The notes under the pieces were generated by a model. That model had not been told where the DNA came from. It worked only from the letters and a program-made list of their open reading frames with translations, and ran no database searches. A program made the translations under genes and the position numbers. A stretch of DNA of 64,000 nucleotides from Lophium mytilinum (lineage: Eukaryota). Where the stretch lies: NCBI GenBank assembly GCA_010093605.1, contig MU004203.1:86156-150155 (forward strand). The letters run 5' to 3'. Below are positions 3,944-55,274 of the stretch, piece by piece. Numbering within the stretch: position 1 is the stretch's first letter; each line of letters starts with the position of its first letter.

Positions 3944-6900
3944 ATGCGGAACTGTCTCCGAGAGAACCCCAAGAAGCGCCAACTTCAAGGCAGCCTGCCC
4001 AATTCACTCAAGCCAGCGGTCGATATAGAAGCGCCAGCGACGTCTTCCGAAAATATGACCGTACCGACCGAGAGGACCACTGGACGCGCAAAAAAAGCCG
4101 CCGCGAGACAAGAGCCGCCAATACCGCTACTCAATATAGTGCCACTCGCCAACATCTTAGCTAGAGCAGCGGCAGAAGATTCTGCTCCGCTGCCTCTACA
4201 GGTCGGCACAGGAGGAGGCAGCTGTGGAGGAAGCAATTTGCGCGGCGAAGGCATGACGGCCCATGAGATCCGTCAGATGAAAAACGCGCGCCTCTTGAAT
4301 CAAAAGAACCACGCCGTACTACCCAGACTGCTTAGCCTTGGAGAGCAACAGGCACTGGCGAGGTACAATGCAAAAGATGAGGATGAGGCCGAAGATAATG
4401 TAGCGACATTGGAGCGCCAGCGAGAAGCGCGACTTGTAAGTAACTCCATCCTGTGCTGATTTGAAGGCGATGTTGACAATACTAAGGCCCTTGACCCTCT
4501 CAAGCCCCGTGCGACTCCTACCCCCTCATTTCGTCCGGGACAAAACGATACAGCCTACATAAGCAGTATCTATAGAGAACTCATTTTTGGGGAGAGACGC
4601 GTGCAGGATGACTTAGCTGTGGCTTCTAAGTCAGCTATCCCTGACTTTGGTGGATCCTCGTCCAGTACCCCAAAAGTCGCCAACAGTGCCATTCCCACTA
4701 CCGATCAAGACCAAGAACTTCCTCGCGAGAACGAACTCCCAGATCCCGAGGATGTCCTATCAGCCGCGGAGAGAATAGAGCGAAACGAACACTACACTCC
4801 GTGCGGTCGACTCGGCGATGAAGATGGATCCCTTGGTTGGAACTTCGAGCGCGACTGGACTATTGGCAACTACCTCGAGGACGCCTCGTTCATCTCGTAC
4901 ACGTTCGTCAATCTTCTTCATCAAGACGGGAAGCCTGCCAGACCTGCGAGGCCAACACCAGCCTCAGCCCACCCCACTGACACTGGAAACATCTTCGACC
5001 CGACCCTTATACCTGTAATCAACGTCGGTCATGTCGATCCAAGCTTTTACGGAGATGGAATCGTTGTTGATTCCAAGGGGATCATAATGGGTTGCTGGAA
5101 GTGGGAGGAATCTGGGGAGGATCTCTACGTCTGGTGTGACGACTGCAAGTCCAAGGGGGTGCATGATCATTGGTACCAACCGCGGTGTTATTACACCTGT
5201 CCTCATTTCAACGAGCTTGAGGATGCCACCAAAGAGCGCGAGCGTTTCAGGATGGTTTCTCGCCATCACGGTCTCCAAATGCCCTTCGGGTGCAAGATGT
5301 CCAAAGATGTCGCGCGGAGGTTTGGGGTGATCTATGATCATGCCAAAGCTGTCAATGCCAGCAAGAAAGGCAAGATGGCGATGACAAAGATAGATCTTCA
5401 GACACAAGCTCTCGCCCCTCTACGAAAGTATGGGAATCAACCAGTCCCGTATCAAGCCACCGGGTCCGGTTCTACGCAAGAACCCCAGATGGAGGACATC
5501 TTTGTAAAGGTACCGAAGGACCTGAACACCCTCATGCGTACCGACCTTGTTGAGGAGCAAAGAGTCAACTTCGACTATCTTCTCGAGAGCATCAAACATT
5601 TGCAGAAGCTCCTGGTGCCCATTGAGGAGGCTCTGAATGATATGCCTATTCAAGATCGGCCAAAATTCAGAATGCCTCCACATCTGGGTCATCGCAGCTC
5701 GTCTGTTCCGATGATTGGACTGCGTCGGCTCTTCACAAAAGTAACTGGAGACAGTATCTGGGCTGAGCTGTATGCTCGTCCCCACGTGGCAGTTCCCACG
5801 CTCGTCGAGCTTTTGCGGGAAAAGCTAGCAAGCGTGCAGCAGAAGAAGGCGGAGCGAAAGGGGGAGTGGCACATTGCAGAGCGTCAGCTCCGAGAGCTGA
5901 TGAACAAGTGGCGCGAGTATCACAACCGCCAGCTCGCGGCTTCGTTGGCCGCGATTGGCGAGAGTGGTGCGTCGACTAACGACAATGTGCTCGCCATTGA
6001 GGACCCTTCCGATCAGGCCGTGGAGAGTCAGGATATAGGTGCTATTAATACCGTTGCCACGAATGACGGGAACGAAGTAGAAGAAGTTGACACACCCGCC
6101 ATCGAAGGGACAGCAAAGGAGCTCGACGAAGAGGCTACCGAGCTACCTACCAGGTTCGAAAATACCAGTGGGCCGGGAGAACCCCATGACATGGAAGTAG
6201 ATACTGTGGGTACTGGAACCACACCAACAGGCATTAGCCTTGAACCACAACCTATATTCAACTTCGCCAGAGACACAAAGAAGAGCAGGGGGCTCTTGGC
6301 TTCAAGAGTCACCGTGGCGACCGCAGGGTCTGGCATGAAGTCCAGCAAAACCAGCACCGGAAAGACTGCGAATAGCAAGGTCCTTGGCAACCATGTGGTG
6401 AAACAAAAGCTAGCTCCTTCTAGGATGGGCCTCCGGAGTCTAGCAAAAGCTGCACATGCTGCTACAGTCGAGGACCGCAACGCAGTGGGAGAAAATGTCA
6501 GTGAACCCGCCGCTTCTGAAGAAGAAACTGGCGCAGCAGCTGTCACTCTAGCTGAGTCGGAAGACGCGGTTGGTACTGAAACCGACCGTGATGATCGCCC
6601 AGATACTGACACGGGGTCTGCGCGACCTACCCTTATTGTGGTTCTCAAGATAGGCCACAGTACCGTAGCTCAGCAGCTTCTGAGATTGGCCACGGACAGC
6701 GCCGTCAACGTGGACAGCCCAAGGATCGAGGGCCGAGTTCTTCGCAAGAGGAAGAGACACCCGCTCGACGAGGGAGAGGACAATGAGTCTAGCATAAACT
6801 CGGAAAGCATTCACGGAGGTCATGCTAACGATGGCGTCAACGCCCTCTCCGAAAACGGTGGCCAAGGGTCAACAGGAGTGAAGGTTAATGCTTTCAAAGA

Positions 6901-7984
6901 GAAGGCGCCGCCTCGAAAGAAAGCAAAAACCAGTGCTCAGTCAGCTGGGCCGGCTCCGGGCATGGTCAATCCGGTACTTGCTCAGCAAGGCACTACACAA
7001 AATGCGTCAGAAGTCCCCAGGGACAACGCACAGCTGGATATGAACGAAGAAGGCGATACCGCCGAAGACGACAAGGAATGGGAGATTATCACCCCCGGTG
7101 AGGGCAGGTACAAAATCAACGAAGAACGCTCCATGACTCTCCAGCGGCGTCACAAGATTTCTGGAACCGTGCAGTCCATCACCTACACCCATGCCGATGA
7201 CGTAGACTGGGCTTTGAACATGTGGATCACGCGACTGAACGCCTGGCGGCGTCAGTGCATTCGCCGCTTTGGCGGTGAGCACGTAGCGGGTTACGACCGA
7301 CAGAAGTGGTCCAAGGAGGACATCGCTTGGGTCAGGGATGCCATCGCCAAGCAGTTTGATAGGCGAGAGAAGGCAGGGGAGAACGTGAAGAAGAGTCCTC
7401 CTTGGGCCGAGATTTACATGGCATTCGTGGTAGCCCATCCTGGGACTCATCGCACCCAGAGGGCTCTGTCGTGCATGGCTATGCGGCAGATTATGCCGGA
7501 GCTGGTGCTAGCTAAGAAGAACAAGCATGAGGGGGAGGGACAGGCGGATACCGCTGAGGGAGACATAGATTCTGATGAGGGTGAGAGTGACGACGCGGAA
7601 GACGAGGCGGAGGTGGGAGACATCGCGCCGAACAACAATGCCAGGACAACCCCTTTCGTCGCCGTGCGTCGAGAGGGCGATCGAGTGAAGCTCCGCCTTA
7701 CGGGCTTGAGGTCGCTCGCGAACTCTGACAAAGTCGAACGTAGAAACGGAGAACGTTCCTCCAGTCGTGTTCAAATGCAGCTCATTGTAGCAAATGCCAG
7801 GAATGGACCTGTTGGCGGTAAGAAGCGCAAGATCGCAAATCGCGATGATGAGTATATCTCTCCCGCGCGGTCGTCAAAGAGAATAAAGACGGCATCCGCT
7901 AAGGCTGATGACGACGAAGTGATGGAAGATGGTGGAGTCGGAGCGAATGCACACGAGAACGAAGAGGTCGAAGAAGAATTGTAG
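3944..7984 (+). CDS. Family member 1 (about 1329 aa; exons 3944-4435, 4487-7984): novel Cys domain + Sin3-HID-like segment + Myb/SANT-like domain
   Basis: ORFs 3833..4459 and 4601..7984 join in frame across a GTAAGT..AAG intron (4436-4486). Motifs GDGIVVDSKGIIMGCWK, CDDC..CYYTC, EEQRVNFDYLLES..PHVAVPTLVELLREK and DW..RLNAWRRQ..WSKED..W..RTQRAL are shared with the paralogues. Confidence 0.85.
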
Positions 7985-26666: not shown

Positions 26667-29600
26667 CTAAAGCTCGTCCTCCATGCTTTCGCCATTTCCT
26701 TCATTTGCAGCACTCCAATCTGGCATCTCCTCATCCTCGCCTTCGACATGGCCCGTGGAGGTCCACTCCCGGACCACAAAGATGAAGCGCTCTCCTTCTT
26801 GGCGAACAGTGATTATTGGACAATCAAGGGTGGTGTTCTCTTCAGATTGAGTGGGAGAAACGTTATCGGTAGGCGCAGTAGAGGCTTCACCATTCGTAGG
26901 ATCTCCGACGCTGATGCCTGCGTCAGCACTTGTGGACTCGGAGTTGTCGTTAACATCCGTAAGGTCGACAGTATCCGCTTCCCGTTCCACGTTCTGCTCA
27001 CCTCCCCGGCCGTCATTCCTGAAGACCTTCATGAAGCGGATGCACTTGGTTTCGAACCCTCTCCATGTGCGTGTCTTCTCTCCAAACTTCGCTTGGAAGC
27101 GCTTGAACATTGCCACCCAGCCAGGATAGGCCCTAGACGCCGCTTCACCTCCAGGCATATTCTGAACTTCTCTTCGGAACTCCGTCTCAATCCAATCCAG
27201 CTCCTCCGGACTCCAGAGGCGGCGGTCATAGCCGGCAATGCGACTGCCACCGCAACGGCGGATGTATAGGCGTCGCCAGCTATTGATGATGGTGATCCAA
27301 TCTTGGTTGGACCAATCCACCTCGTCTGCGTGCTTGTATCGCCAGATCACCACTTCCTGGGTGATCTTATGCCTCCGGCGGACAACTATATCTCTTGGTT
27401 GGTCACGCTCGTACGCAGGGCCGTCGGCATCTAGTATCTCCCAGTTCGCCTTGTCCTCGTCTGAAAGTCTCTCATCTTCATCACCCTCATTGGCGAGGAT
27501 TGACAGTGTCGAGACACCTCCGGCGCCAACCGAGCCTTCGTCAAGTGCGTTGGAGGAGACCTGTGCACTACCGGAAGGGCCCGCTTGGGCGGTTTCAGTG
27601 TCCAGTCTAGCCTTTTTGCGGGCCGGCGCCTGAGTATTTCGAGCTGCCCGAGGCCTAAGCACTCTTCCAGTATGTCCTCTATCTTCTGTGCCACCTTGGG
27701 TCACGTCAGATTCGTGACAACCCTCGTTGTTGGGGCCATTGTTTTCAGCTGGCATTCGCTCTTCATCATTCTCGTCGAGGGACAGACCCCTCTTCCGCTT
27801 TCCAAGATTTGTCCTGCTTTCAATCGGCGCGGACGTAGTGGTTGCGTTTTCTGTAAGCCTAGTCGAAGGAGGCTGCAGGTTAGGGTTGGCGATACCAGTA
27901 CTTGTCCCTTGATCAGCTATGTCCATTCGTTCGCCAGCGGCTTCACTTCCTCCTCTGGAAACAACTTCGGCCCCACGAGAAGAACCTCCAGTATTGTTAT
28001 TCGATTGGCTGCTGGTGAGTGACTCGATATGGTGTTCACGAACGGGCATTGAAGAGGTGATGTTATCCAAGTTAGGAACACTCCTGTTGAGTGGGGCTGT
28101 GGGCAAGGTACTCGGCAGTTCCTCAAACGGGTAGAGATGCTTAAACATATCACGAAACCGATCTGCGTAGGCTTTGCCATTTGGCCGGGCCTGAGCTAAG
28201 GCGATCCTGTCCAGAGTCGTGGCGTCCTCAGTGATAAGTGTAGCTTGCGTCTCCTGAATGCGCTCATCTTCCTTAGACAGCACATAATGAATGCTCCTCT
28301 GAAGGTCGGCCGGATTGAAGCCACCTAGGAATGGTATAGGATACACGGCATCGTATAGACTGAGGGCCGCTTGGTTCAGAGACCCGGTGAAATGTTTCAA
28401 GACGGCGGGCATCCTGTCATCCACAAAGCGAGGTCCGGGTCCCCTTTGGTATTCTGTCTCAGTGACCGGAGATTTCCTATTGTGTGATTCTGGAGCCTGT
28501 ATGAACGCTGAGGGTATCTTCTCTTCAGCAGATCGACGGCCACTTCGACGCTGAAATTGGGGAGGCACAGCCATTGGCAATGGCTGGTCGTAGTCTACCC
28601 GCTCCTTGTGAGACTTGACACTCTCCTCAACAATTTTGACCTGTGCAAGCATACGAGCCTCGTCTGCGGCTTTTTGGGTGGTGAATCGACGAGTATTTCT
28701 CGCAATCGCTGCGTTGTCCTGATTTCTAGTCCTCTGAGCCTCTTCATGCTGCCGAGCAAATGTGCTCTCGATACGGTCAAGGTGATCTTGACGCTCCTGG
28801 ATCCAGTCCTGTTTCAAGTCCTGGATTCTTTTCTTGAGGCCCTCTAGCTTATTCTGCATACCCTCAAGCACGATCGGTATCATCAAAACAGGTTGTCGTT
28901 GGATTTCGATCATGAGTTCGTCCCCTGGGTCTTTGCCGTACACGTCGCGGAATACCATTCTAGGCAAAGCCTCGCTGGTCCCCGTGAAGTCTGCGGGAAT
29001 AATCATGAAGCGTCGCTTCTCAGGGGCGGTCTGGTTAATCTGATCATTCACACGCCGGAGAAGTGGTATCATCTTCTCACAGCGGTGCATCGTGATCCAC
29101 ACAAATTCTTCCTCGTCTTGGACCGGATCTCCATCTCTGTGTACTCGGAAGTCTGGATCCGCAACATCTGGCTTGAGCAAATGCGCAGTCTTCTTGAGAT
29201 CCTCGGCCGCACGTCCGTTCCGCACTGCCTCTGTGTGGTTGTACTCGGTTCCAAGCTCACGTAGCTCGTTTGGAGAAATGGCCATCTGCCCGGGCAGCTT
29301 GAGGGCGTCGTGAAAGGACACCGCACGATATTTACCGCTATATACGACAAGGTCCGGCGTTGGATTCTCGTAATACTGACAAGCAAAATGGCATCGCTTG
29401 ACAGTTCGACCGTAGCCCTTGGCAAACTGCTTGTTCTTCCCGTACAGATATCTACATTTCTTACACGGCTTGTACGCTACGGTGAGCGGGCAGTACTTCC
29501 ATGTACCAACAAGCTGGCCGTCGGCATCGGCCATGACGCCGTCTCCTAGACCACCAGGCTGAAGACGGCCGTCATTAACGATGTTTATCTTGGTTTTGTT

Positions 29601-30776
29601 GTCGTTCGACGAACTCGAAGGTTCGCTCGGCATGGGGAGGCCTTCACCGGACTCTGTTATAGGGTCCGTTACTTGGAAGTGCTCCTGCTCGATGAAGGTA
29701 ACGTTCTCCAGGTAGCGTCCAACAGTCCAATCCTTCTCAAAAAGCTTCCCGATCGCTTCCGCCCCTTCAAGCTCTTTCCCAGTCTGTATGGCGTGTCGCA
29801 GAGCGACCGAATACTCGTCAGGGTGAATTGGTAGATCATTAGGCTCTGGCCCATCCGGTGCGGCGACAGTCAGTTGTGGCCAGTTCTGATTTGGCTTGGG
29901 AAGAAAGACTACATCTTCTGCTGTTCCGAGGACACTACGAAGCTGGTGAATGTTAGATGGAACTATGGGAGAGCCACGGAAAGGGCAAACACTTACATCA
30001 GTCGCGTAGGCTATCGCGAGACGAGTCGTCGCAGCATCCTGGGCGCCCTGGACATGGACGTCGTTCCCCACGGCCTCTTTCTGTAAAGCATGCCGGATAT
30101 CTAGTGGTAGTTCGGTTGGCACACTCGCCGCGTCCGCCGCCCATCGCGCCATTCTCCTCTCATCGCGACCTTCCGCGGTATTGGGGTCTGCCATCTCGTC
30201 ATCTTTCCTGGCCTTAGCGGTGGGCTTCCGTTCGCGTCGTGGGCGTAGGTCTGCTTGAACAGCGTCTGCATTGTCCTTCTGATCTGTTCCTTTTTGGTCC
30301 TCCTTCAAGTTCTTTGATTTTGACTTCTTTAGCGCAGCTACATCACCCTTAGTCGTGGTTGCGGCCTTTTCTGGGGACTTGGTGGTGAGTGTCCTGGCGA
30401 TCCTTCTACCGCGCGCAACAGTTTCGATAGCGACGACAGCAGCATCCTCCATGAGGTGATCTTCTCCCACATGGGTGGTAGCAATTTGGTTTTGCGCGAG
30501 AGTGCTAGGTTGCGCGACTCCAGTCGTATGGGTACCAGCGCTTTGGACAGCGCGCGTCGGGTTCTAATTGCGGAGGTCAGCTTCATCTTTGCCATCGCTG
30601 GAAGGGTATTGTGTACTCACCGGAAGCTGGATGGGTCCCGTGTTGCCAACCTTGGCCCTTTTGCTGCCCTTCGCCTTCGGTAATGCTGTCGCATTGTTCT
30701 GCAACATCGGAGGATTGGCTGGCGCATCTTCCTGCGCCTTTCGCTTGCGCAGGCGCGCACCTGTAGTCTCTTCCAT
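26667..30776 (-). CDS. Family member 2 (about 1332 aa; introns 30620..30564 and 29996..29943)
   Basis: MEETTGARLRKRK exon splices in frame (GTGAGT..CTGAC..TAG) to the 1267-aa ORF; second in-frame GTAAGT..CTAAC..CAG intron after ATD. Motifs DWTVGRYLE, GDGVMADADGQLVGTWK, CKKC..CHFAC, QPVLMIPIVLEGMQNK, DWSN..NSWRR..WSPEE..W..RTWRGF. Confidence 0.87.
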
Positions 30777-32532: not shown

Positions 32533-33276
32533 CTACTCTGACTGATCGTCGTCGGCATTTTGAGCGTCTTCTTCTGCCTCGGAGGTTGGGAGAGAGGACA
32601 GAGAACTGCTCGTCGTGCTCTGGGTGTGGCTGGGGGGCTCGAAGCCGAACATTCTTCTCAGGTTGTTAGCCCTAATGCGGTCCTCTTCGTGGACGTGTCT
32701 CAACACAGCTTGGGCGGTCGGATCGTTCTCCCAAGTTAAGGCATGGGTAGCGTTGGATTCATTGGCGCGAGGCTTCAGCTTGCGTGCGTTCCGGGCCTGT
32801 CTGGCCTGCTCTTCGATGTATGTTGGACCAAAGCCCTCGAGAATGTCTGTGCGGATGGAGAAGCCGTAGGGGTTCTGAAGGGCATTGTGAAGGGCGACCT
32901 CTCGGGGCTGGTACTGGATGGAGTCCGCGCGTCCCTTTTCTTTCAGTTCTGGGCCAACAAGATGCTCTTTGCGCCAGCATCCAATGATCTCTCCTGTCAA
33001 GTCTGCAATCACGCCGTGTCCGAAGTTCCGCTGATCGAGACCGCCGGTGTTGTATATCGTCAAGCATGTAGTTGCTGTTGCTTGGGTTGAGAGGGGAGTA
33101 GGCCCCTGGGCGGGAATGATGGCGATTTGATCAAGAGGGATAAATGTGGCACCCTCAAGCTTCGTAGCATCTTCTTGATGGACGGCTACATCTTGACACC
33201 AGTTTGTTCCCACAGCCTGAGGTGCCGATATGACTGCAGATGGCCCAATCCCCGTAGTTTTCGATGTTAAGTCCAT
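32533..33276 (-). CDS. Short family member (about 247 aa) with only the N-terminal novel domain, Cys cluster absent
   Basis: LEGATFI..NTGGLDQRNFGHGVIADLTGEIIGCWRK..REVALHNALQNPYG..FGPTY aligns with members 1-3. Confidence 0.7.
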   Translation of the reverse strand: MDLTSKTTGIGPSAVISAPQAVGTNWCQDVAVHQEDATKLEGATFIPLDQIAIIPAQGPTPLSTQATATTCLTIYNTGGLDQRNFGHGVIADLTGEIIGCWRKEHLVGPELKEKGRADSIQYQPREVALHNALQNPYGFSIRTDILEGFGPTYIEEQARQARNARKLKPRANESNATHALTWENDPTAQAVLRHVHEEDRIRANNLRRMFGFEPPSHTQSTTSSSLSSLPTSEAEEDAQNADDDQSE

Positions 33277-35073
33277 TTTTCGCTGTTGGAAGTGTTTTGG
33301 CTGGGCAGTGTTGAGTGTACAGAGCACGCTGAGATCGGTGGGGTTTCAGAAGCGTGGGATGGATGAAAGGGGTCGATTGAAGTCGCCGATCAAGGATGTG
33401 AGGCGTTTGAAGGTTGGTGGAGTTCTATGAGGTTGAACACGAGAGTGGTAGAAGATTGAAGTTCTTGCGGTTAAGCTGTGAGGCGCACTAGGGTTGACAC
33501 ACCGTGGAGAGCTTGGTAGTCGATAAAGAAGAGCCTGTGGATGGATGACAAGCGCTGGGATATGACCATTGGAGTCGCTGAAGGAGAGGAAGATAGATGA
33601 GGAGTCTTGAGGGCTGGCTACAGAATGTGTCGTCGCAGGTACATGTGAATGATGTGTGGGCGTCCGTGCGCTCTTGTTCTTTGATTGTCATCGTAAGGTT
33701 GATGCAGGGCGCCTACAATCTACTCTTTTCGCGGCCATCGCAGAGTAGCTGATAGCTCCATCTGAATAGTACATAAAGCTTCCATATCAGTTAAAATAAG
33801 CCCGGTACCATTTGATCTATACTTCAGTCCTGGCCAAAAGCACTTGAAACAGTTGCTCGTCAGTGAAATTTATCTCCCACCCCTGGATCAGCAACAACTT
33901 TGAATTGGGGACATATGAACCGACGTTGGGTATCATGTCTATGACAACTGCGAAGGGGAGGCTTATATCCGCATTTAATTATATCGTATATGTTGCATAA
34001 TGATTGGATTAAGAAGATGAGCCCTTGTGCCACTCTACTTCAGGCACTATATCTCAAATTATAGCGCGTAAATGCGGTCTTATTTCAACTGAACTATACC
34101 TCACATACGCGCAATACCATACCTGTCCATATGCCTGTGTCCCTGCCTACTGCCCAAGCTCTGGAAAGCCAGTCCTCCTTCGGCCGCAGTGACGACGCAT
34201 CCCAATATCCCATTTCTTGCCTCCCTATCTTTTCTCTCCGAGATGTTGCCTGAGCACATAGCTTGTACAGATTGGAAGCCGGCTAGAATAATCCCTTTAG
34301 TCGGAAAAGGAAGGCCGCTCGAATCCGCGCAGCAAAATCACGAAGGGGTATAGCGGAGACCGGTAGTGGAAAGGGGTTCAGGAGGAGGATTAGAAGGGAG
34401 GCCCGAGGGCATCGAGGATACCGGTGGAAGAGCTTGATGGCCGAAGCAGAATGCCGAGATGGAAGGAATCTGGAGTTTTGGTCGATGAATATAAAGGCTA
34501 TGTCTGACTGAACTATTATATCTCTATTCTAGCACCTCGGAATTGAAAGAGTAGCACATTCATCCCAGAATCAATGTACATGCATGGATGCCACTGCCTG
34601 AAATTATTCAATGTGTTTCCAGAAAAATGCGTCGATACGTTCCGACAGACTTGAAAACTCGCTAGAGGACTCCAAGTGGCATACAGGTGTAGACATACGG
34701 GATTAGGGTGCCACTTTTATACTTCTAATATGCCCGGCTTGCCACTTCACCCGCGCCATCAGCTTACCGCATTCGCAGTCCTTGACTGTGCAGACCGCAA
34801 CCACGCACAATTCCTTCCTGATCTCGAGAAGCCGTCGAAAATGAATCCGTACGCTGCTGACTCTGCTCACACCAACAACCCCCCGTCGCCCAGAGGTATT
34901 GCTTCAGACAGATAGTTTCACAATTTTTGACTTTGAAGCTGACAGTGAGCCACGCAGAGACCTCCTACTCGCTCTTTCCTACCATCGAATTGTCGCCAAT
35001 GCCGTCTGCGAGCATTCCCTCTACCACAACCAATTCTCCCTCGAAGCAAAGCCAACAACCTCTCCGCACCACA

Positions 35074-40484: not shown

Positions 40485-41570
40485 ATGCCCCCAAAACGCA
40501 GCTCCCGCGGCAAAGCCCGCGCCGAACCCTCCAATCCCGCTCCTGTAAGCCTCCCCTTTGCTATCATCTTAACTAGAGCTGACTAGCCTCAGCCCCGCGT
40601 CCGACCAGGAATTCTGCCCCGTCACCGGGGCCGCGCGTATTTCACCGACGAATTGCTGCCCTACGACCCCGACGCCACGCGCTACATCTATAGAAACTTT
40701 GGACGGTACCCGGAGGCGGAGTGGCGCGCTGAGGAGGTGGCGTCTTCGCGCCAAAGAGACGTAATGGGCGATATGTTGGCTTCTGTGGGGTTTGAGGCTA
40801 CGATGGCTGAAGGGTTGCACTATTTGAACACTTTGCCCGCAACTCACGCACGCGTTGTGCCTAGCCGCGCACGCCCTGGCCGCCTTGTCGTGCCTGTTGT
40901 TCCTGTTGTCGCTGCCGTAGAGGAGGAAGAGGGTGGAGAAATGGTGGAAGAAGAAGCGGAAGAGGCCGTAGAAGAAGCAGAGAAAGCTGAAGAAGAGGAG
41001 AAAGAGGAGTTAGAAGAAGCGGAACAAGAGGAGGGAGAGGAAGAGAACGATGACGACGAAGAGGACGAAGACACCACCACCGCCGGCCCCAGCACGTCCA
41101 AGAAGTTCTGCCCTAGTGAACAAAACCGCGACTTCAAGCAGAACCCCCTGGTACCCGGCGTTCCTGATCCGGCCCTCTTCGTAGTACGAGGGACCTTCAA
41201 GGGCGTTGATACCACCAGAACCTACCCCGGCGTGGCGAACTTCGACTGGAACAACAAGAAGTCGGTCAAGACGCTGCTTAACTGGCGTAGCCAGATCTAC
41301 CTACGCGCTGGGGCCTCTAATAAGAAGGTGAGGTTCTTCTCCGCTGCCGAGACCCAGTGGTTGGAACACTACTGGACTCAAGTCCTCAGCGACGTGCGCA
41401 GCGACCCGGCGGCTGGATTGCCATCCCAGGCCGATATCACTGCCGCCTTCAACGCGGCCTTTCCGGCCTCCCACCGCACCCAAGCGTCGGTCAGCAGTGC
41501 GATCAGTCGGCCCGGATCTAAGTGCAGGGGTCTGAAGGAAGAGGCGGAGAGGGTGATTCGGGACCGTTGA
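40485..41570 (+). CDS. Short family member (about 345 aa; intron 40545-40592) with an acidic tract and only the Myb/SANT-like domain
   Basis: MPPKRSSRGK exon joins ORF 40653..41570 in frame; FDWNNKKSVKTLLNWRSQI..FSAAETQWL..ITAAFNAAFP..RTQASV aligns with the C-termini of members 1-3. Confidence 0.78.
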
Positions 41571-45681: not shown

Positions 45682-45860
45682 AAAAAAAATGCAAAAGAGT
45701 TGCAGCCACCAAGGAAGACTATGAGGAAGTCAACCTGGAGACTCAGTCTCTATATCACCAGTCGCCGTGCCGCGCGTCGAACACAAGTACAACAAAGGGA
45801 CGTACCTTGATGAGCAGTGGTAAGGAGTCGAACCTTTCGCCACTGTGCCATTTAAGGCGA
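45682..45860 (-). ncRNA. Candidate Pol III transcript with tRNA-like head (A box + T-arm/B box)
   Basis: Minus strand TTATAAA (45888-45882), TGGCACAGTGG (45850-45840), AAGG-TTCGACT-CCTT arm containing GGTTCGACTCC (45834-45824), and a T8 terminator (45689-45682). Confidence 0.4.
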
Positions 45861-46534
45861 AGGGAGGCCAGAATATTAAGGTTTATAACCATAGGTTCAG
45901 GTCAGATCTCTTTACTTAGTATTATGGGTTGGGGATCTCGCTGCGAGTAGTGCACCCCCACTCAATCAGCCCACGCTCGCCGCACGCCTCCACGGCAACC
46001 ATCTATGCAACCACCGACTCGCCGCCCTACCTAGGCTGGCTCATTATCGGCCTCCACAACGCGACTTGTGTAATTACTATGCGGCGGCACATCAACCACG
46101 AGTCTTACAGTCCATCTCGTCCTTTCTCCTGCAGACAGTGAGCAAGAAGTCCTCCACTCATTTTAAGAATCGGATGCCCCCTAATAGTACCCACGACGCC
46201 GGCAAACATAGTCCCGACAGCAGCAGCTGCCCCGTGCGCATGGTGTTTTGTCGCCAGCTGCCCCTCCTCTGACCCCGACGCCGCCACCACCCGCCCTCAC
46301 TGAACAGCACGAGGCCATCGCAGCCCCTGAGCAGCATGGTAAGCTCATCTCCCTATAGCGACAGCGACCATCAACTTACAGACGTCCAAGAGACAGGTGA
46401 GCGGCACCCCGAGGCGCGTTTTCGCAGCGTCTGCCGCATTGTGCGGGCAAAACCCTCTCCCCCGAGTTCTCCGCCGCATCGCATCTTTGACTCCACAACG
46501 ACCAAGCCCGCGCACTTCGCGGCATCTACCATCC

Positions 46535-47660
46535 CTTTTGACTGGATGGATACCTGCTAGCTAGGCTACCCTTCCAGGTGATGTTGAGTGATCAAGATGG
46601 GAACCCGAGGGATTCCATATTCGGGTGCCTGAACCTTTGTCCTGGTAATGTACAGCCATTGTTTGTCCTACGGTCGATACCGCTGAAATCACCCTACCTT
46701 TTGGCTAGGGGGACACCTGCTGGCTGGGCCACCTTCCACGATGGTATCGATCGATCAAGAGTAAAACCCCTAGCTGAACACCTGCTAGCTAGGGCACCCT
46801 TTACAGTGACGTCAAGCGATCAAGAATGGACACGGAGGAGTCCTATGTCCGACTGTCCACACTAGCGTCCTGGTACTGCAGCAGACAAAACAATGCAAAT
46901 GTCGGCCCAGTGAACGCTGGGCTGCCTTTTGCCTGGCTGAACTGCTGCTGGCTGGAACACCCTCTACGGTGGCATAGATCGATTAAGAAGGAAAGCCGGG
47001 GAGTCCTATATTCGGGTGCTGAAGTCAGTGTGCTGGTAATTCAGCAAAGGCTAGAACGCAAAGATCGATGCAATGGAAGGAGGCTGCCTTTTGACTGGTG
47101 AACACCTGCTGGCTGAGCCGCCCTCTACGGTGGTATCAATTGATCAAGAAGGAAAGCTGGAGAGTTCATATCATGGTGCCTATACTTGCGTTCCGGTACT
47201 GTATGCAAAGGCTAATGCAGTGGAAATTAGGTTGACCTATGACTGGCTAAGTACCTGCTGGCTGAGCTACCCTTTACGGTGGTGTCGATCGATCAACATT
47301 GGTGGCCGATAAGTCCAATATTCAGGTGCCCAAGCTTGTGCCCTGGTATTGCATAGCTATTGTGCCTCCGCCGAAGGCGTGTGAGCAGGGCGCAAAACCC
47401 TTTCTCTTCTGTTAGTTGATGCTTTTCCGTAAGTGCAAGCATGCTGTCTCTTCCCCGGGCTTCGCCGCCCTCTAGACCCTCCTTCGCGAGTCTCGAGGTC
47501 AGGCTGCTGATGACAGGCCATAAGTCTAGGCACATTGCTTGGGGGATCTCTTGGGTTTCGACGGTCTAAACGCAATGTCGAGGCTCATGAAGTGCAGATC
47601 GAACTGTCGCTTGACCGATTAGCTGCTTAGCAGCTATGCTACCCCCTACAGTGGTGTGGA
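46535..47660 (-). repeat. Degenerate about 160-bp satellite (about 7 units), reverse complement of the arrays at 55-61 kb
   Basis: acctgctggctgagc..ccctctacggtggt.tc.atcgatcaa recurs; its reverse complement caccaccgta.agggtagctcagccagcaggt matches units at about 57160 and 58180. Confidence 0.8.
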
Positions 47661-48289
47661 GTGAGTAATATTAAAGCGCGGCAGTGACAGATCCATGTGA
47701 TTAGACTTACGAGTATAGTGTTATAAATAGAAACACCAACACTTTCAATAATCCTCATTCGCCTTCAGGGCAGTCTCTCTCATATTTGCTTGTTACTCTT
47801 TTTCTTCGCTGAACTTCCCCGCCATGAAGGCAAAGCCTGCCCAACTCTCCGCAGCATTGTGCAACCATAGAAATGGTGAACAAAGTGATTTTGCAGAACC
47901 AGCTGCCCCCGGGGAGCTTCCTAGACATCATAACACCACCATCTGTGAATCAGGAGGTGTTGCCCGGCCAGGAGGCCGGAAGGGAGTTCACTGCCAGACA
48001 GCTCCTGCTAGCGTATTTTAGGCACTTTTGCCCCCACCCGCAAGACCTCCGCCTTCTTTACGTCTTCCACGAATATCTACACACTACTGACATTTCTGTG
48101 CTTCTAGAATTGTTTTGTATTGTCGTGTTTGCTTGTGGAATATCCCCTGGCGTTCGTAACTCAGGTTTGTCCCGAAAACGTGTCCTGATATCAAACGAGG
48201 AGATTCGAACGCCCTCGAAACTACAGAATCTCATCTTTCTTCTCGCAATAGCCACTAGACACTCAAGGCTATATCGCGGTGGTCAAAGA

Positions 48290-49130
48290 GCTTACGCGCG
48301 CCTCCTGATATCGACTCCGCCGCCATTTTCCGCCTCCAAACACGAGTCCATCCCGACATCGCGATTTGAACGCTCTTGACTCTGCGGAAACGTACCTGTC
48401 TACTCGCAATAGCAGGTAGACACTTACGGCTATATCAGAGTGTTCAAAGAGCTGCCTCTGCTCTCCTGATATTGACTCCACCTCGATTTCAACCTCCAAA
48501 ACGCATCTCTATATCCAATAACGTGAATTGAATACCTTCGACACTGCAGATTTATGCCTCTCTACTCAAAACAGCAGGTAGACACTTGGTCATATATCAG
48601 AGTGTTCATAGAGCTACCTGTCGCCTCCTAATATTGGCTCCACCTGAATTTCCGCCTCCTAAACGTGTCTCCATACCAGCGACGTGCTTTGAACACCCTC
48701 GATACTGCAGAATCGCACCTGTCCGCTCCCAACTGTATGTAGGGTCTCCCACTTATATCAGGGGGTCCAAAGAGCTGACCCTTGCATCCTAGTTTCAACC
48801 CCACCTCGATCCTCCCCTCAAAACGCATCTCCACATTAACGACGCGATTTCAATACGCCCGACACTGCACAATCGCATCTATCCTCTCGGAACAGTGTGC
48901 AGCGTTTTACGCCTATATTAGGACGTCCAAAAGGCAGACGATTGCCTCCTTGTTTCAACTCCCACTCCATCCTGCTCCGAAAACACGTCTCTATACCAAC
49001 GACGCGATTCTTACACCCTCAACACCGCAGAACGGCATCTGTCCGTTCGCAACCACAGGTAGGGTCTCCCCCCTATATTAGGGCCTTCAGAGAGCTGACG
49101 ATCGCCTCCTAGTTTCAAATTCCTCTCCAA
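48290..49130. repeat. About 161-bp tandem repeat (about 6 copies) immediately upstream of member 3
   Basis: ctcct..(atatt/gtttc)..ctccaaaac..cgcgatt..cactgcaga..caggtag..tatatcag...caaagagct at about 48302, 48462, 48625, 48786, 48946 and 49105. Confidence 0.85.
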
Positions 49131-49485
49131 ATCCCTTCCAAACACCTCAACTTCGTAAGTTCACATCCCCTCTTCGTCGCCGCCCTCTACACATTGTAAA
49201 ACCACACTATACCCCTCCCCCTACCTTCATCTTGTGAATTCACCATCCAGAGGTCCAAATCTAGGCAGCAGAGGCCTGGGCGCGAATTATCTCGCCCTCA
49301 GAGTATTCACTACGAGGCAGCACAACCCAGGTCTTCCAAATACCTCGACCTCCCACCTACAGCTTCTCGTGGGATTTTCATTCATCATCTCCCCACCCAC
49401 CACACCACACCACCTAGCAAACTTTGCAATTGCATCACAACTTCACTCACAATACTGACACGGCTTCAGCCTGTCTTGATAGAAC

Positions 49486-52400
49486 ATGGCCCCCCGCAAG
49501 CGCAAGCAAGCGGAGGTCGAAGACGAAATCGAGAAGCCCGGCGAGACCACTCAGACTGGAAGGCGTACGAAGAAGGCGAAGACTAGGGATGAAAGGGCGA
49601 CAGCTGAGGTACGAAAGGGTCGCCACTCCGTCAACATCAGCGGACAAGCTAACAACAGCCAACAGGCTGATCCAACCAAGACCGGCCCTGTCGCTGCTGG
49701 TGGAGTTACCAAGTCCTCCTTGATAGTCAAGCTTCCTGCGAAAACCTCCTCGACACGCCCCCTTCCTCCACAAGCTCTTCCAATCGTCATTTCCGACGAG
49801 GAAGAAGACGTAGATATGCTAGGCACGCAGCCTCCCCCTCCTCCCCCTCAACAGCGCGTGACTCGCGCGCGAGCGCGCGCGGCGTCTGAAACACCAGACA
49901 TCATGGCACCAGAAGCACCTACCATCATGGCATCACAAGCACCAGCCATCGTGGCACCTCCAGCACCGCCTGTTGTCGAGCCAGTGACTTCCATAAGGCC
50001 TCCTCCAGCACGGCCTATCATCTCACCAATGGGACCCCCAGAGCCTGCTCCAACTCGCGTGCTCCGGGACCGAAAGGCCAAACAGCCCCCCAAAACACTC
50101 CCCCAATCCGCCACCCCTGATGTAGACCAACACTTCGTCGCCGTCGTGGCAACCATCGACGCCGCAACACAGAGCTCCGGTGATGATGAACGCGCAATAC
50201 CCCCAGATGCTGCCCTAACTGGCAAGTCTCTGGGTGGAAAGGCGAAAGTAGCCTCCAAGCCATCCCCCCAATCCACTACCCATGGCGTAGAGCCAGACTG
50301 GGCCGCACGTCTAGCTGCCAATAGGGCAAAGTTACAAGCCTCCGGTGAAGCAGGCCTCATAATAGCCCCAGGCGCCCCCGCACAATCTTCACTCGCAGCC
50401 GCGCGGGGCGCACAGTCCACCAAATTCCCATCACTCGCGAAAGTGGCCGCTGAGTCAGCCCTTAGCGAGGCGTCTTCCGCACCAACCCCAACACAGCGCG
50501 CTCCTCGCATCACCCGAGCTGCAAACAAACGCGCCATCATGGACCCCAAAGTCCGAGCCGCGGAGGCGGAGCAGCAGAAGGCGCTGAGGCAGCGGAACAC
50601 GCAGCGTCTGGGTCGCGTCGAGACCCACCTCAAGAACTTGGCGGGCAGTGGGGTCATGGACCCAGCAGAGCTCCCGGAAGGGCCTCGCGGTAGGGCGAGG
50701 AAGACGAAGAGACCGCCGAAGGATCTCCCCAAGGAGACCGTGCAGGCGCTGGCGAAGACGCAGCCTGCTGGGAAGGCGGAGAAGGTCCGCGAGGACGCTG
50801 TTGCGGCTGCGACAGATGTAAGTATCTCTGTTTTTTCCCCTCTTTATCATGTTGATCATAGTGCTAACAAGACGCAGATGGCAGGAGTCCGAGCTGTTGG
50901 GGTGACACCCACAGCGAGAGTGGCCTTCCTGCCTATCCCCACCGCTGACGACCCCGTCCTTTTTGGGCCAACGAAAGACGGTCCCCAGCCTCTACCCGCC
51001 TCCAAAGATCCTCTGAATTGGACGGCAGCGCGACGACGAGCGGAGAAGATTGGAGAAGAGTCACTGGACCGCAAACTTCGCCTGGGCCTGAGGGCCGAAA
51101 TCGGACTGGCTAGCTACACCACGGTCCACTCCATCGCCCACCTCCTCGACAGCGTCATTTTCATCAAGCATGAAAACCTTGTCGGCATTCACCTCGGCAC
51201 CAAGGCCACGGCATCACAGCGCGGGGATGATTCTCATATCCCTGTTGGAGACGAGGGCCGCCTAGACACCGCGGCGCTTGGAGACGGCATCGTCGTCGAC
51301 AAGAACGGCATGATTGTGGGAACGTACAAGGACATCCAGCTGTGGAACGAGAAGTACAAACCCAGCTGCGACAGCTGCACCGCCAAAGGGAAAGAAGTGT
51401 GTACTTACCATTGCCCGGGCTTCTACGCCGAACCGCTGTTGAAGTACCCAACAACTCCGTCCCGCCTCGTTGCACTCCACAACAACTTGGTAGCATACGG
51501 CATCGACAACCGCATTCATCCGTACGGACTGGAAAAGCTCGGCGAGACATACGACCACGAAGAAACCCTCCGCATCGCGCGCGAACCGATGACGGAGTGG
51601 GTAGAGAACCGGAAGAAGATGACAGCCGGCGAGAGAAAGATCGCCGACGAGAACGACTACAGCAGCTACGGCTATTTCGGTGCTCCCAACTGGGCTGATG
51701 AGGAGCGGATCAGCCTTCAGATCAAAGAGGAAGCATGCAGGTCGATGATCGAACGCCTCCGAAACATGCAGCGCCAGATCGATCTCCTACCGCCAGATCA
51801 GCGACCGAACTTCGTCCCTCCCCCGAACTTCGGCGAAGACCTGTCCGGCGGTCAGAGTGAGCATACCCCCAAACTCGCTCTCCGCAACGCCTGTGGCCGC
51901 GAGTCCGGCAACAAGATGTACAGCGAGCTCCTCGCGCGAGCCTCGGTTGCTGTTCCTCTCGTGCTGGCTAAGCTCAAGGAGTACTGGGAGTTTCTCAAGG
52001 AATACGACCTCAAATATGTTGAGGCGAGGTTGAGGGCAGACCGAGACTACCGCGCCATGCAGGCATACTGGGCTCTGCATGAAACAGAATCCGCGTACAG
52101 CGTGAGGACCAAGGCACGAAATCTTCGAGCGGCGGATCTCGAGGAGGCTCGAAACGAAGCAGCCGCCAGAACTCCCGAGGAACAAGTAGAATGGGATGAG
52201 GACAACCGTCGCCGAGAACTCCTAGAGGCTCGAGTCCAGGCCGAGAATCGTGGTTTCTCCGTGGAAGAAATGGCACGAGGCTCTCGCATCGACGAGGAAG
52301 CCTTCAACAAGAAAGATGTTGAGCAGTGGGAGATCAGCGCAGCCCACTGTGCCACCAAACTCAGGCTAGAGGGCATGGAGAACCGCAACGGCGCCTTCGC

Positions 52401-55191
52401 TCCGCCAACCGTGGACGACAGCCGCGTAGAATCTCGCCGGCAGTATGAGACATCCTCAGTCCGCTTCGACATGCCCACATTCGGACCTCCGAGCTTTGAC
52501 GACCCCATTCGTTCCGCTTCCGTTCCTTCTGATAAGGACATCGGCTTGTGGGCTAGAACAGACATGCCGATCACCCAAGAGATGGTAAAAGGCCTCCAAA
52601 AGCGTGCGCAAGCTGCCTCAGATGTCGCTAAGGCGCTGAATGCTCTGGATACTCCTCCTCCCCAGCCCGTGCAGCGAGAGACTAACGCGGAGAGAGTTGC
52701 CCGTCTGAAGCGAGAATATGAGGCGCGCCAGGCGGACATCAAGAAGTTCGAGGCTAATGCTCAGGTTTCCGACCTTCGCGGAACCGAGCCAGAGAGCGAC
52801 GCGCAAACACCAAACATCGACCTCATCAAGACGACGGCCTCTTCATCAAAAGAGACCCCGCAAGAGTTGAAGGCCCGTCTGAAGCGCGAATATGAAGCGC
52901 GCCAGGCTGAGATCAAGAGCTACGAGGCGAATCCTACACAGTCCGACGTCCGTGGTGATGCTTCCACTGCCTCTGGAGCTCCCAACGTGCACATCACTGG
53001 AACCGGAACCTCCAACGCCATTGTCATCAACGAGGATGATACCCTAAACACTCCCACCGTCACCGGCGAAGACCCAAACACCCCCACCATCACGACCTTC
53101 CCCCGTTCGAAACCAGAGTGGCGAGAGGCCAAGACTGGAGCCAAAACTCGCTCCGGCAAGACGTTGGGCAGCCGAGTCCGAGAGAGCATCGAATACCTTC
53201 CAGACATGCTCAAGAGGCACCATGAACGAGATCACAGCCTCGACACCGCGATCGTCGATTCCACAGACGCTTCCACAGATTCCAGAGACGCTTCTACAGA
53301 TGCTAGAGACGCTTCTACAGATTCCCGAATGCCCGATAACTCGGAGAAGACTCGCTTGGTTACTGTGCCTGTACCAGCGATTGATGCTACCCCGCTCGCC
53401 ACGTCTGCTGAGCAAGGAAATGGCGGTGAGACTCCAGAGGATGTTGTTCAGCAGGCCTTCCCCGAATTGGATGTGGCCATGAGCGATACCCCAGAATTCG
53501 CTGCCATCGATGCGCCGACGCCGACTTCATTAGATCTTGTGAAGGCTATGGATACGCAACTCGAGAAGGCTCCAGCAGTTTCGAAGGCTATAGAGACGGC
53601 ACTCAAGAAGCTCCCAGCGGCTGCCATCGAGAAACCAAAGGCCCTTCCAAAGATGAGCAATGGAGGCGCCATGGCAATGCCATCCGGTTTGGTGATGTTC
53701 CGTCGTTCCACTCCTGCTCTACTTAGCGGAGATGGCTCACTCCAGACTGATGAGTCCGAGAATGTCGAGATGGGAGGTACCGAAGATGCCCTGCCCACCA
53801 AAGCGAAAGGAAAAGCGAAGGGAAAGGAGCCAGCACATTTCGCACCCGTCAGCGCCACCGCCTCATCAAGCAAGATCGAGACCGGCGAGTCCAGCAAGGC
53901 CGGTGCAAGCGGCGCATCCCACAAGCCAGTTGAGACCAACCCAGCGAACATGACCGAAGCCGAGAGAGTTCTCCATGCGTTGAATGAGGGCGCGCTGCAG
54001 AAAGCGATCCAGGACAGCATGAAGGCATCCCATCCGGCCGCGACGACGCTCCAGATTGCAGGCTGGACTCCCGTAAATCCCCCAACTCCTGGCGCTGCCG
54101 GAGTGGAGCAGGATGAAATGGAAGACTACCTGTACGGCGCAGAGAACCTGGAAGAGGATGGCGAGATTTATGTGCCGGACTCAGATCCCGAAGACGACGA
54201 CGACGAGATGAAGGACGACGACGACGAACTAGACTCCCACCACTCCGACTCCGATTTCGACAGCGACAACGACTCCGGTCCCCCCAAGGGCGGCGCCGCG
54301 CTGAACAAAGGCAAGGGAAAAGCTCCAGCCCCAGCCCCCGCGAAACCCAAGCCCACCTACACAGGCAAAGGCAAAGGCAAAGCCGAAGACCCCCCGTCCG
54401 ACGACGACGACGACCTGGACGACCCCGCCCCCGGCAAGAAGCCCAAAGGCCCCTACAAGTTCCTCGCCATCGACCCGCACGAGTACGACGAGCAGGGCGT
54501 GCGCCGCACCAACCCCGACGGCAGCGCCATCCCCTACTTCCGCTTCACGCCCAACGTCGACGACACCGCGCGCCTGACGATCCGCAAGAAGCACCGCAAG
54601 ACGCTGCGGGAGGAGCCGCCGTACGTGTACAAGCACCTCGCGACCATGGACTTCGCGAACAACCAGCACGTCGTGGACGCGAACAAATGGCGGCGCCAGA
54701 TAATGCGGCGCTCGTACCCGGAAGATCGCGTATATGAAATACGCGACGGGTACGAGGCCGAAGAGCGGGAGTTCATGCGGCAGTACGTCCGCGCAGACAT
54801 CGCGGCGCGTGGCGCGGAGACGGTGCGGCGGCGGCCGTTGTGGGAGAACTTGTTCCAAGCGTTCTGCCGCCACTACGTCGGTAATACGCGTAGCAAGCCG
54901 GGGTTGACGTCGTGGTGTGGCCGTGACCAGCAGATCGCGGACATGAAGGGCCTGCCGGTCAAGAAGGCCGGTGTTTCGGCCAAGCAGGCTAAGCTGAACC
55001 TGCTTGCGGCGGTTAAGGCGGAGGGGGAGGGACAGGACGCCGAGGCCCCTCCGCCGCCGCCGAAGCAGGGGATGAAGAGGAAGAAGGAGGAGGATGAGGA
55101 GGATAAGGACGACGACGACGACGACTCTTTCCATCCGGGGAAGAAGGGGAAGAAGGCGAGGAAGGGGAAGAAGCGGGCGAAGAAGGAGTAG
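49486..55191 (+). CDS. Family member 3 (about 1862 aa after likely in-frame introns 49609-49665 and 50818-50877)
   Basis: 1901-codon ORF. GDGIVVDKNGMIVGTYK, CDSC..CTYHC, DEERISLQIKEEACRSMIERL..GGQSE..VAVPLVLAKLKE, DFANN..NKWRRQ..YEAEE..W..F..RSKPGL; acidic and basic low-complexity tail. Confidence 0.9.
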   Translation: MAPRKRKQAEVEDEIEKPGETTQTGRRTKKAKTRDERATAEVRKGRHSVNISGQANNSQQADPTKTGPVAAGGVTKSSLIVKLPAKTSSTRPLPPQALPIVISDEEEDVDMLGTQPPPPPPQQRVTRARARAASETPDIMAPEAPTIMASQAPAIVAPPAPPVVEPVTSIRPPPARPIISPMGPPEPAPTRVLRDRKAKQPPKTLPQSATPDVDQHFVAVVATIDAATQSSGDDERAIPPDAALTGKSLGGKAKVASKPSPQSTTHGVEPDWAARLAANRAKLQASGEAGLIIAPGAPAQSSLAAARGAQSTKFPSLAKVAAESALSEASSAPTPTQRAPRITRAANKRAIMDPKVRAAEAEQQKALRQRNTQRLGRVETHLKNLAGSGVMDPAELPEGPRGRARKTKRPPKDLPKETVQALAKTQPAGKAEKVREDAVAAATDVSISVFSPLYHVDHSANKTQMAGVRAVGVTPTARVAFLPIPTADDPVLFGPTKDGPQPLPASKDPLNWTAARRRAEKIGEESLDRKLRLGLRAEIGLASYTTVHSIAHLLDSVIFIKHENLVGIHLGTKATASQRGDDSHIPVGDEGRLDTAALGDGIVVDKNGMIVGTYKDIQLWNEKYKPSCDSCTAKGKEVCTYHCPGFYAEPLLKYPTTPSRLVALHNNLVAYGIDNRIHPYGLEKLGETYDHEETLRIAREPMTEWVENRKKMTAGERKIADENDYSSYGYFGAPNWADEERISLQIKEEACRSMIERLRNMQRQIDLLPPDQRPNFVPPPNFGEDLSGGQSEHTPKLALRNACGRESGNKMYSELLARASVAVPLVLAKLKEYWEFLKEYDLKYVEARLRADRDYRAMQAYWALHETESAYSVRTKARNLRAADLEEARNEAAARTPEEQVEWDEDNRRRELLEARVQAENRGFSVEEMARGSRIDEEAFNKKDVEQWEISAAHCATKLRLEGMENRNGAFAPPTVDDSRVESRRQYETSSVRFDMPTFGPPSFDDPIRSASVPSDKDIGLWARTDMPITQEMVKGLQKRAQAASDVAKALNALDTPPPQPVQRETNAERVARLKREYEARQADIKKFEANAQVSDLRGTEPESDAQTPNIDLIKTTASSSKETPQELKARLKREYEARQAEIKSYEANPTQSDVRGDASTASGAPNVHITGTGTSNAIVINEDDTLNTPTVTGEDPNTPTITTFPRSKPEWREAKTGAKTRSGKTLGSRVRESIEYLPDMLKRHHERDHSLDTAIVDSTDASTDSRDASTDARDASTDSRMPDNSEKTRLVTVPVPAIDATPLATSAEQGNGGETPEDVVQQAFPELDVAMSDTPEFAAIDAPTPTSLDLVKAMDTQLEKAPAVSKAIETALKKLPAAAIEKPKALPKMSNGGAMAMPSGLVMFRRSTPALLSGDGSLQTDESENVEMGGTEDALPTKAKGKAKGKEPAHFAPVSATASSSKIETGESSKAGASGASHKPVETNPANMTEAERVLHALNEGALQKAIQDSMKASHPAATTLQIAGWTPVNPPTPGAAGVEQDEMEDYLYGAENLEEDGEIYVPDSDPEDDDDEMKDDDDELDSHHSDSDFDSDNDSGPPKGGAALNKGKGKAPAPAPAKPKPTYTGKGKGKAEDPPSDDDDDLDDPAPGKKPKGPYKFLAIDPHEYDEQGVRRTNPDGSAIPYFRFTPNVDDTARLTIRKKHRKTLREEPPYVYKHLATMDFANNQHVVDANKWRRQIMRRSYPEDRVYEIRDGYEAEEREFMRQYVRADIAARGAETVRRRPLWENLFQAFCRHYVGNTRSKPGLTSWCGRDQQIADMKGLPVKKAGVSAKQAKLNLLAAVKAEGEGQDAEAPPPPPKQGMKRKKEEDEEDKDDDDDDSFHPGKKGKKARKGKKRAKKE

Positions 55192-55274
55192 GCCCCAGGC
55201 GGGGGGGCGGGTGGTGTAAGGCGAGTTTGAGGTAGTACAGAAATGAAACGTTAATATGATTATCACATACCTCA

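Follow-up and report, generated by a model that had tools for sequence, protein, structure and literature searches.

Occurrence of an isolated Sin3-like stalk-and-head piece in a family of large proteins of the fungus Lophium mytilinum

The 64-kb stretch of Lophium mytilinum DNA analysed here (contig MU004203.1; referred to as a whole as the window) contains three exceptionally long open frames, which are paralogous with 19-29 % identity, and raises the question of what a piece resembling the co-repressor Sin3 is doing in such proteins. A preliminary description of the sequence had proposed that all three members carry a segment like the histone deacetylase (HDAC)-interacting domain (HID) of Sin3, that this segment had been captured without the PAH domains, and that it might recruit or titrate subunits of the Rpd3 complex. 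No other part of Sin3 is as well conserved as the HID, which serves as the hub joining the deacetylase with the Sds3/Dep1/Rco1 scaffolds.

The main exon of member 1 is an open reading frame (ORF) of 1174 codons at 4460..7984 on the plus strand (coding to 7981); its public gene model, P0004, has 1329 amino acids with an extra upstream exon within 3815-4456, and is named by the source as hypothetical protein (Lophium mytilinum). Member 2 lies at 26667..30563 on the minus strand, with a main-exon ORF of 1298 codons and a gene model, P0005, of 1384 amino acids having an extra upstream exon within 30567-30995. Member 3 (P0003; 49486..55191, plus strand) is intronless, with 1901 codons and a stop in a frame open from 49483 and an ATG at 49486. 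It consists, in order, of a disordered N-terminus, an N-domain, the Sin3-like piece, a long linker and a C-domain, with basic ends.

The peptides quoted in the preliminary description lie where it had placed them, 51697-51990 corresponding to residues 738-835 of member 3 and about 5552-5870 to residues 365-470 of the member 1 ORF. The core of the piece in member 3 (51697..51990, plus strand) is delimited by the alignment of a Sin3-only hidden Markov model (HMM), by the profile search of the PDB and by a predicted local distance difference test (pLDDT) of 93-98. It comprises a first stalk helix starting with D-E-E-R, the loop PP..FG..GGQSE, a small head, and the start of a second stalk helix, AVPLVL..LKE. 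The widest extent, 51682..52158 (plus strand), takes in the structural match at residues 733-848 and the hhalign match, which follows the long second stalk helix to residue 891 (query 194-347 of a cut starting at residue 545). The piece of member 1 (5549..5947, plus strand; ORF residues 364-496) scores 64 bits over nodes 123-241 of the Sin3-only HMM and is the nearest to Sin3 among the pieces. That of member 2 (28797..29123, minus strand; ORF residues 481-589) scores 55 bits over nodes 136-231, and its stalk start, V-Q-D-E-E-E, is the most diverged.

A family profile made from the aligned cores of members 1-3 gave 19 matches at E<=10 among 177,635 PDB sequences, the best nine of which are all Sin3/Pst chains (E 2.6e-13 to 2.5e-10), the tenth being at E 0.11. 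These are five yeast Sin3 constructs (809-919 in full-length numbering at E 1.5e-12; best construct at E 2.6e-13), mouse Sin3A (2n2h chain B, E 1.8e-11), human SIN3B 454-570 (E 7.9e-11), and Pst1 and Pst2 of S. pombe (E about 1e-10). Against 1.84 billion representatives, the same profile yielded 439 matches at E<=0.001, including P0006 (E 1.1e-33), an uncharacterised Mytilinidion resinicola protein. The non-family matches are confined to profile positions about 195-348, mostly 213-335. When 16 of these non-family matches were analysed by Pfam, every one proved to be a Sin3 protein with Sin3_corepress, 15 having PAH and 13 both PAH and Sin3a_C.

Profile-profile and reciprocal comparisons gave the same result. 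hhalign of four family pieces with 30 Sin3 regions returned a probability of 99.4 %, E 5.6e-22, 129 columns and 29 % identity, and the D-E-E-R of member 3 is precisely where the alignment begins. In the reciprocal direction, an HMM made from the 30 Sin3 regions only, which took in 120 residues on the upstream and 150 on the downstream side of the match, detected P0004 at E 2.8e-16, P0005 at E 3.2e-13, P0006 at E 3.3e-11 and P0003 at E 2.7e-8 (Z=1e6). The profile checks proposed with the preliminary description therefore returned significant and Sin3-specific matches, and the likeness to the Sin3 HID that it had noticed in members 1-3 was borne out by profile, hhalign, reciprocal HMM and fold match. 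Judged by these sequence comparisons, the stretch in members 1-3 is a true homologue of the 'stalk and head' of the Sin3 HID, about 100-130 residues long.

The relation is visible to profiles only. A phmmer search with 300 residues of member 3 alone found nothing in the PDB at E<=10, and Pfam assigns members 1 and 2 to no family and gives nothing beyond a noise match (E 0.47) for member 3. The piece escapes Pfam because the match takes in only the last ~35-40 positions of Sin3_corepress and then continues for ~80 residues beyond that model.

The fold of the piece has been assessed with an AlphaFold2 model of member 3 residues 545-900 (356 residues), which has a mean pLDDT of 79; for most of the Sin3-like part the block means are 93-98. 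Among 48,161 representative chains compared by VIA-align, the top five are all Sin3 (Z 12.3-13.3), and the next chain is at Z 7.9. The root-mean-square deviation (rmsd) is 1.8-2.0 A over 109-111 residues for four of these five. Model residues 189-304 correspond to Pst1 651-761, SIN3B 451-560 and yeast Sin3 806-916, and model residues 175-314 to mouse Sin3A 605-729. The latter is the fragment of PDB entry 2n2h ('Solution structure of Sds3 in complex with Sin3A') to which the piece as a whole roughly corresponds, a fragment able to exist by itself with the Sds3 helix. The 19 best rows listed by Foldseek are likewise all chains of Sin3-HDAC complex entries, most with an rmsd of 1.6-2.4 A over 110-118 columns. 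In the predicted model, the arrangement of a two-helix stalk and a small head is the same as in Sin3.

The remainder of Sin3 is missing from these proteins. At most nodes 109-241 of the Sin3-only HMM are matched in the family, and nodes 1-108 and 242-383 find no match despite hundreds of residues on both sides of the piece. The absence of PAH domains noted in the preliminary description is confirmed, as Pfam searches for PAH (PF02671) came back empty both for members 1-3 (E<=10) and for P0005 and P0006 (E<=0.001). There is also no Pfam match in the family to Sin3_corepress (PF08295) or to Sin3a_C (PF16879), and the upstream HID helix which enters the HDAC hydrophobic pocket is not matched. The family proteins are not Sin3 co-repressors, since three of the four defining domains are absent. 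What is retained, alone, is the sub-domain made up of the first stalk helix, the proline/glycine loop, the small helical head and the long second stalk helix. The Sin3-only HMM matches 147 of the 150 proteins P0004-P0153, and only P0004, P0005 and P0006 among them lack the upstream HID despite room for it, as does member 3, which was tested separately. One tandem Sin3 in this set was flagged on the downstream side only.

As a separate observation, the Sin3 representative P0018, from outside the window, has 1442 residues with two Sin3_corepress domains and six PAH repeats, and is apparently a Sin3 duplicated in tandem or else a fused gene model.

The distribution of the piece within the family bears on its origin. 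P0006, of 1959 amino acids, is orthologue-like to member 3, with 33 % identity by BLASTP over 41 % of the query. Between the two proteins the identity is 43 % (46/107) in the piece, 41 % in the N-domain, 33 % in the linker and 62 % in the C-domain. Shorter relatives having both the N- and C-domains are P0068 (895 amino acids), P0078 (521) and P0153 (619), the last being another Lophium mytilinum protein, from a different contig. Where the long members have 101-115 residues in the columns of the piece, these three relatives have only 12-23, and even with all filters switched off the Sin3 HMM does not match them at E<=1000. The piece occupies the same architectural position in each of the four long members (members 1-3 and P0006). 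In a tree of 98 columns, which took in 30 of the 146 available Sin3 matches, the four pieces group together as a single clade, which has a long branch and falls within the Sin3 diversity, with a Shimodaira-Hasegawa-like support of 0.885. Because the piece is missing from three relatives whose N- and C-domains are the same, an insertion is likely. A single capture from a Sin3 gene, followed by gene duplication, would be the simplest history in view of the sequences, and to this extent the 'captured Sin3 piece' of the preliminary description stands. Word-indexed searches returned only the family's own proteins (1 among 5745 candidates, which is the gene model of the query, member 1, itself, 3 among 8000 and 2 among 7999). 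The family is a tiny one of long, mostly disordered proteins, found only in Mytilinidiaceae fungi.

The domains flanking the piece offer some indication of the setting in which it may act. The N-domain of member 3 (51133..51552, plus strand) is beta-rich (model residues 6-145, block pLDDT mostly 79-93) and carries the motif G-D-G-I-V-V-D, which in the family reads G-D/E-G-I/V-V/I-V-D and is common to P0068, P0078 and P0153. A search of the Protein Atlas gave no usable lead for it, and the Foldseek and VIA-align lists for the 356-residue model are filled by the Sin3-like part and are uninformative for its fold. Inserted in the N-domain is a cysteine cluster, C-x2-C ... C-x3-C (51367..51414, plus strand), of low pLDDT (model residues 89-111), which is present in the three window members only and absent from P0006 and the short relatives; it may be a zinc-binding zinc knuckle.

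The C-domain of member 3 (54460..54948, plus strand) comprises a small beta part followed by helices in a predicted model (mfe41851bb245, mean pLDDT 83.6). It has an invariant N.WRRQ..RR motif (N.WR..RR in the family) and the pattern W/Y..EE..F...W...F...WC. The best VIA Z score for this domain is 6.7, which is below the noise guide of the tool, and many of the 50 rows (Z 4.7-6.7) are Myb/SANT/trihelix/homeodomain-like over model residues 100-176. Foldseek gave no match at E<=0.001 and Pfam no match, and the leads from the Protein Atlas are all sub-threshold (feature scores of 0.87-0.89 to unnamed Ascomycota clusters and a template modelling score of 0.40 to a Myb/SANT cluster). From the model, the C-domain is possibly Myb/SANT-like. 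The ends of the proteins of members 1-3 are rich in Lys/Arg clusters, which we infer from their composition to be putative nuclear localisation signals. In addition, the linker of member 3 contains, at 52700-53000, two copies of the conserved amphipathic motif A-R-L-K-R-E-Y-E-A-R-Q-A-x-I-K-x-F/Y-E-A-N, of which the Mytilinidion counterpart has one; this motif is a candidate interaction helix.

The roles of the stalk and head within Sin3 are described in the sections of several structural reports that deal with the HID. The acidic triad of the SIN3B stalk, Glu456/Asp457/Glu461, occupies the allosteric basic patch of the HDAC, replacing inositol phosphate, and swapping its charge lowers the activity (PMC10156912). 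According to the same account, the HID head packs against an HDAC loop, SIN3B buries roughly a third of the HDAC's surface by means of its middle domain, HID and C-terminal domain, and PHF12 lies on the stalk in a manner resembling SDS3 on SIN3A, the binding of PHF12 and SDS3 being mutually exclusive (PMC10156912). In S. pombe Pst1, Glu657 at the start of helix 16 is described in the same positively charged pocket, and a more upstream helix in the hydrophobic pocket (PMC10115800). In the yeast Rpd3L complex, Sds3 is reported to engage the HID of one Sin3 copy and Dep1 that of the other, each by a short helix (PMC10224958).

Considering these roles, we tentatively favour, at slightly below even confidence, that the piece was taken once from Sin3 and acts as a docking module toward Rpd3-type deacetylase machinery. 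The largely retained acidic E-E-x-R start of the stalk would engage the inositol-phosphate (basic) patch of an HDAC, as in SIN3B; alternatively, the stalk groove might hold the short helix of an Sds3, Dep1 or PHF12/Rco1-type subunit. The family proteins would then either bring deacetylase subunits to their own binding places or compete with Sin3 for those subunits. Residues D738/E739 of member 3 correspond to E456/D457 of SIN3B and E811/E812 of yeast Sin3, the HMMER alignment to yeast Sin3 809-919 and the structural ranges being in agreement. At triad positions 1/2/3 member 1 has E/E/N, member 3 has D/E/S, P0006 has E/E/D, and member 2 has Q/D/F with E-E-E in between, so that positions 1 and 2 are acidic in three of the four members. 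The higher identity of the piece (43 %) as compared to the linker (33 %) between member 3 and its Mytilinidion counterpart is also a sign of constraint.

Several observations weigh against a docking role. The third triad position is acidic in only one of the four members. When a column was counted as conserved if it reached >=80 % in 30 Sin3 proteins, 41 of the 98 shared columns were conserved. Only 14 of these 41 are kept in at least three of the four members (27 are not), 22 are kept in at least two and seven in none. The 14 kept columns comprise the second E and the R of E-E-x-R, one further Glu, and otherwise Leu/Ile/Phe/Gly/Ser/Pro, while charged positions invariant in Sin3 are lost, one Lys, for example, being kept in none of the four members and one Arg in one. 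The identity of the family pieces to Sin3 is 26-36 %, as compared to a median of 56 % among Sin3 proteins over the 98 columns, and Sin3 constraints therefore no longer act in full. Thus, the fold and, for the most part, the acidic start are preserved, and much of the Sin3 surface is not. Moreover, Sin3 fragments were among the sequences aligned for the model, so that the fold match does not count as independent of the sequence match. The piece makes up only about one third of the HID, given as 327 residues for the full mouse domain in the pertinent part of PMC8143632, and is without the upstream HID helix, the gate loop and the C-terminal domain. Finally, the family tree is unrooted, which leaves the direction implied by 'captured' unpolarised between a gain in the long members and a loss in the short ones.

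The chief competing explanation, a serious possibility though a doubtful one, is that the fold has been kept and the partners have changed, the hairpin and head being re-used as a scaffold or oligomerisation element with partners unrelated to the Rpd3 machinery, or with none. The 27 Sin3-conserved columns not kept in at least three members, and the mostly core-type character of those retained, are in keeping with such a change of partners. The long branch of the piece and the low identity of the paralogues to each other (18-28 %) point the same way, and many two-helix hairpins reach Z ~7 on the same region of the model, so that the shape is generic apart from the head. However, a scaffold of this kind leaves the preservation of E-E-x-R to be accounted for: the R and the second E are present in all three members aligned at the stalk start, with E, E or D at the first position, and this motif lies at the surface, its contact with the HDAC being known from the SIN3B complex (PMC10156912). 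The head with its PP..G..S loop has, moreover, been retained along with the hairpin.

Two further readings of the action of the piece may be distinguished. One, which we regard as rather unlikely, is that the family proteins are one-polypeptide 'mini-co-repressors' bypassing Sin3, in which the stalk plugs, and thereby activates, the inositol-phosphate patch of a class I HDAC, or holds its Sds3/Dep1-type scaffold, and the Myb/SANT-like C-domain picks a site on DNA or chromatin. If this were true, the tandem expansion and fast divergence of the family would reflect diversifying targeting, e.g. in genome defence or lineage-specific gene silencing. The other, an unlikely one, is the titration of the preliminary description, in which the piece is a decoy instead of a recruiter. 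It would vie with Sin3 for the helices of Sds3/Dep1/Rco1, or for the basic patch of the HDAC, and thereby weaken Sin3-dependent repression. The match of the piece to the fragment holding the Sds3 helix in 2n2h is in keeping with this, as is the absence of the parts needed to build a full complex; competition at the stalk surface is moreover known from the mutually exclusive binding of PHF12 and SDS3, within what is described of the SIN3B complex (PMC10156912). A conserved and possibly DNA-binding C-domain, together with ends resembling nuclear localisation signals, nevertheless fits targeting better than bulk titration, and the loss of Sin3 surface residues counts equally against a decoy.

A history running in reverse is quite improbable. 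The long members would in that case be remnants of a Sin3 paralogue, without its PAH, upstream HID and C-terminal parts and with the flanking domains gained, and the short relatives would have lost the piece later. An unrooted family tree cannot separate gain from loss, and two short ORFs of the window carry one family domain each, which indicates that loss or splitting of domains does occur in the family. Yet proteins of 1174-1959 residues retain no trace of any other Sin3 part, either at the unmatched HMM nodes on both sides or by Pfam, and in three proteins the N- and C-domains occur together without the piece. That the likeness is a chance or convergent one of a helical, low-complexity stretch, as the silence of Pfam and of the phmmer search with member 3 might suggest, is practically negligible and is refuted by the PDB profile search, hhalign and the Sin3-only HMM, since every test by profile, by reciprocal profile and by profile-profile comparison is highly significant and points specifically to Sin3, and the match includes non-helical signature loops.

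Expression of member 3 has been examined through the contig of sequencing run X1, which spans 48610-55459 and has no joint inside the member 3 ORF. Between 55459 and 58055, nine segments that have CT..AC ends and are 48-102 bases long are skipped by this contig, all nine of which are kept in DNA run X2, and X1 has no cover at 44000-48609. X1 is not recorded as RNA and was taken as such only because of the skipped CT..AC segments and the gap in cover; neither strand nor level can be read from its contigs. On this reading, member 3 is transcribed without introns. The nine skipped segments point to a nine-intron gene at 55460-59668 on the minus strand, convergent with member 3, whose assembled transcript is joined to that of member 3 in one contig; Pfam gave no match in its longer ORF pieces. 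Also bearing on whether the genes are live, the frames of members 1-3 stay open for 1174-1901 codons in an otherwise sparse region.

Two further family ORFs are present in the window. The first (32536..33345, minus strand) has 270 codons and the N-domain only (family HMM nodes 365-507, E 1.9e-22), and the second (40587..41567, plus strand) has 327 codons and the C-domain only (nodes 933-1037, E 1.4e-15). The Sin3-like piece is absent from both, which may be split genes, truncated copies or pseudogenes. The 64 kb thus hold at least five family genes or gene fragments. The window is otherwise poor in recognisable genes, a Pfam match (E<=1e-5) being found in only two of the 75 ORFs of >=110 codons outside members 1-3, namely an amino-acid permease fragment (13666-14043, minus strand) and an AAA_11 fragment (60333-60791, plus strand). 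An origin as a transposon or Starship cargo was set aside, on weak evidence: these 75 ORFs contain no recombinase or transposase domain, and the paralogues are far too diverged for recent copies.

The homology of the piece to Sin3 is solid and unexpected, and the docking mechanism, as read from the sequence, is plausible; the organisms concerned are not experimental models. If functional, the family would constitute a natural experiment on what a minimal stalk-and-head module can do alone, whether to bind, to activate or to compete. The sub-domain is invisible to routine annotation because it lies mostly outside the Pfam Sin3_corepress model, and further isolated copies elsewhere may have escaped annotation. 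The piece also offers an initial clue to the function of a cluster of large fungal proteins that are otherwise unnamed.

Among known systems, the piece resembles the stalk-and-head of the Sin3 HID (yeast Sin3 ~806-919, Pst1 651-763, SIN3B 451-570 and mouse Sin3A 605-729) in sequence, fold and order of elements, keeps its PP..G..S loop and A-V/I-P..L motif, and largely keeps its acidic E-E-x-R start. It differs from the Sin3 HID in standing alone, without PAH1-3, the upstream HID helix, the gate loop and Sin3a_C/HCR, in evolving much faster with the loss of most Sin3-invariant charged positions, and in being flanked by two domains never seen in Sin3. Full-length Sin3, Pst1-3 and SIN3A/B have this one sub-domain in common with the family, and both groups are probably nuclear. 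The SANT/DAD adaptors (SMRT, MTA1 and MIDEAS, with inositol phosphate) offer an analogy only: if the piece does dock on a deacetylase, it would address the same HDAC patch as these adaptors, as far as the patch is described in the relevant parts of PMC10156912 and PMC10115800. There is no sequence or significant structural match to the SANT/DAD adaptors; the C-domain of the family is possibly SANT/Myb-like, on weak similarity (Z <= 6.7). Among P0004-P0153 the isolated piece is found only in the family's own proteins, and a limited full-text search of the literature, which is not proof of absence, found no description of a HID-only protein outside Sin3. The stalk-and-head domain and its roles in Sin3 are well known; what appears to be new, within the limits of that search, is its occurrence alone in an unrelated, tandemly expanded family.

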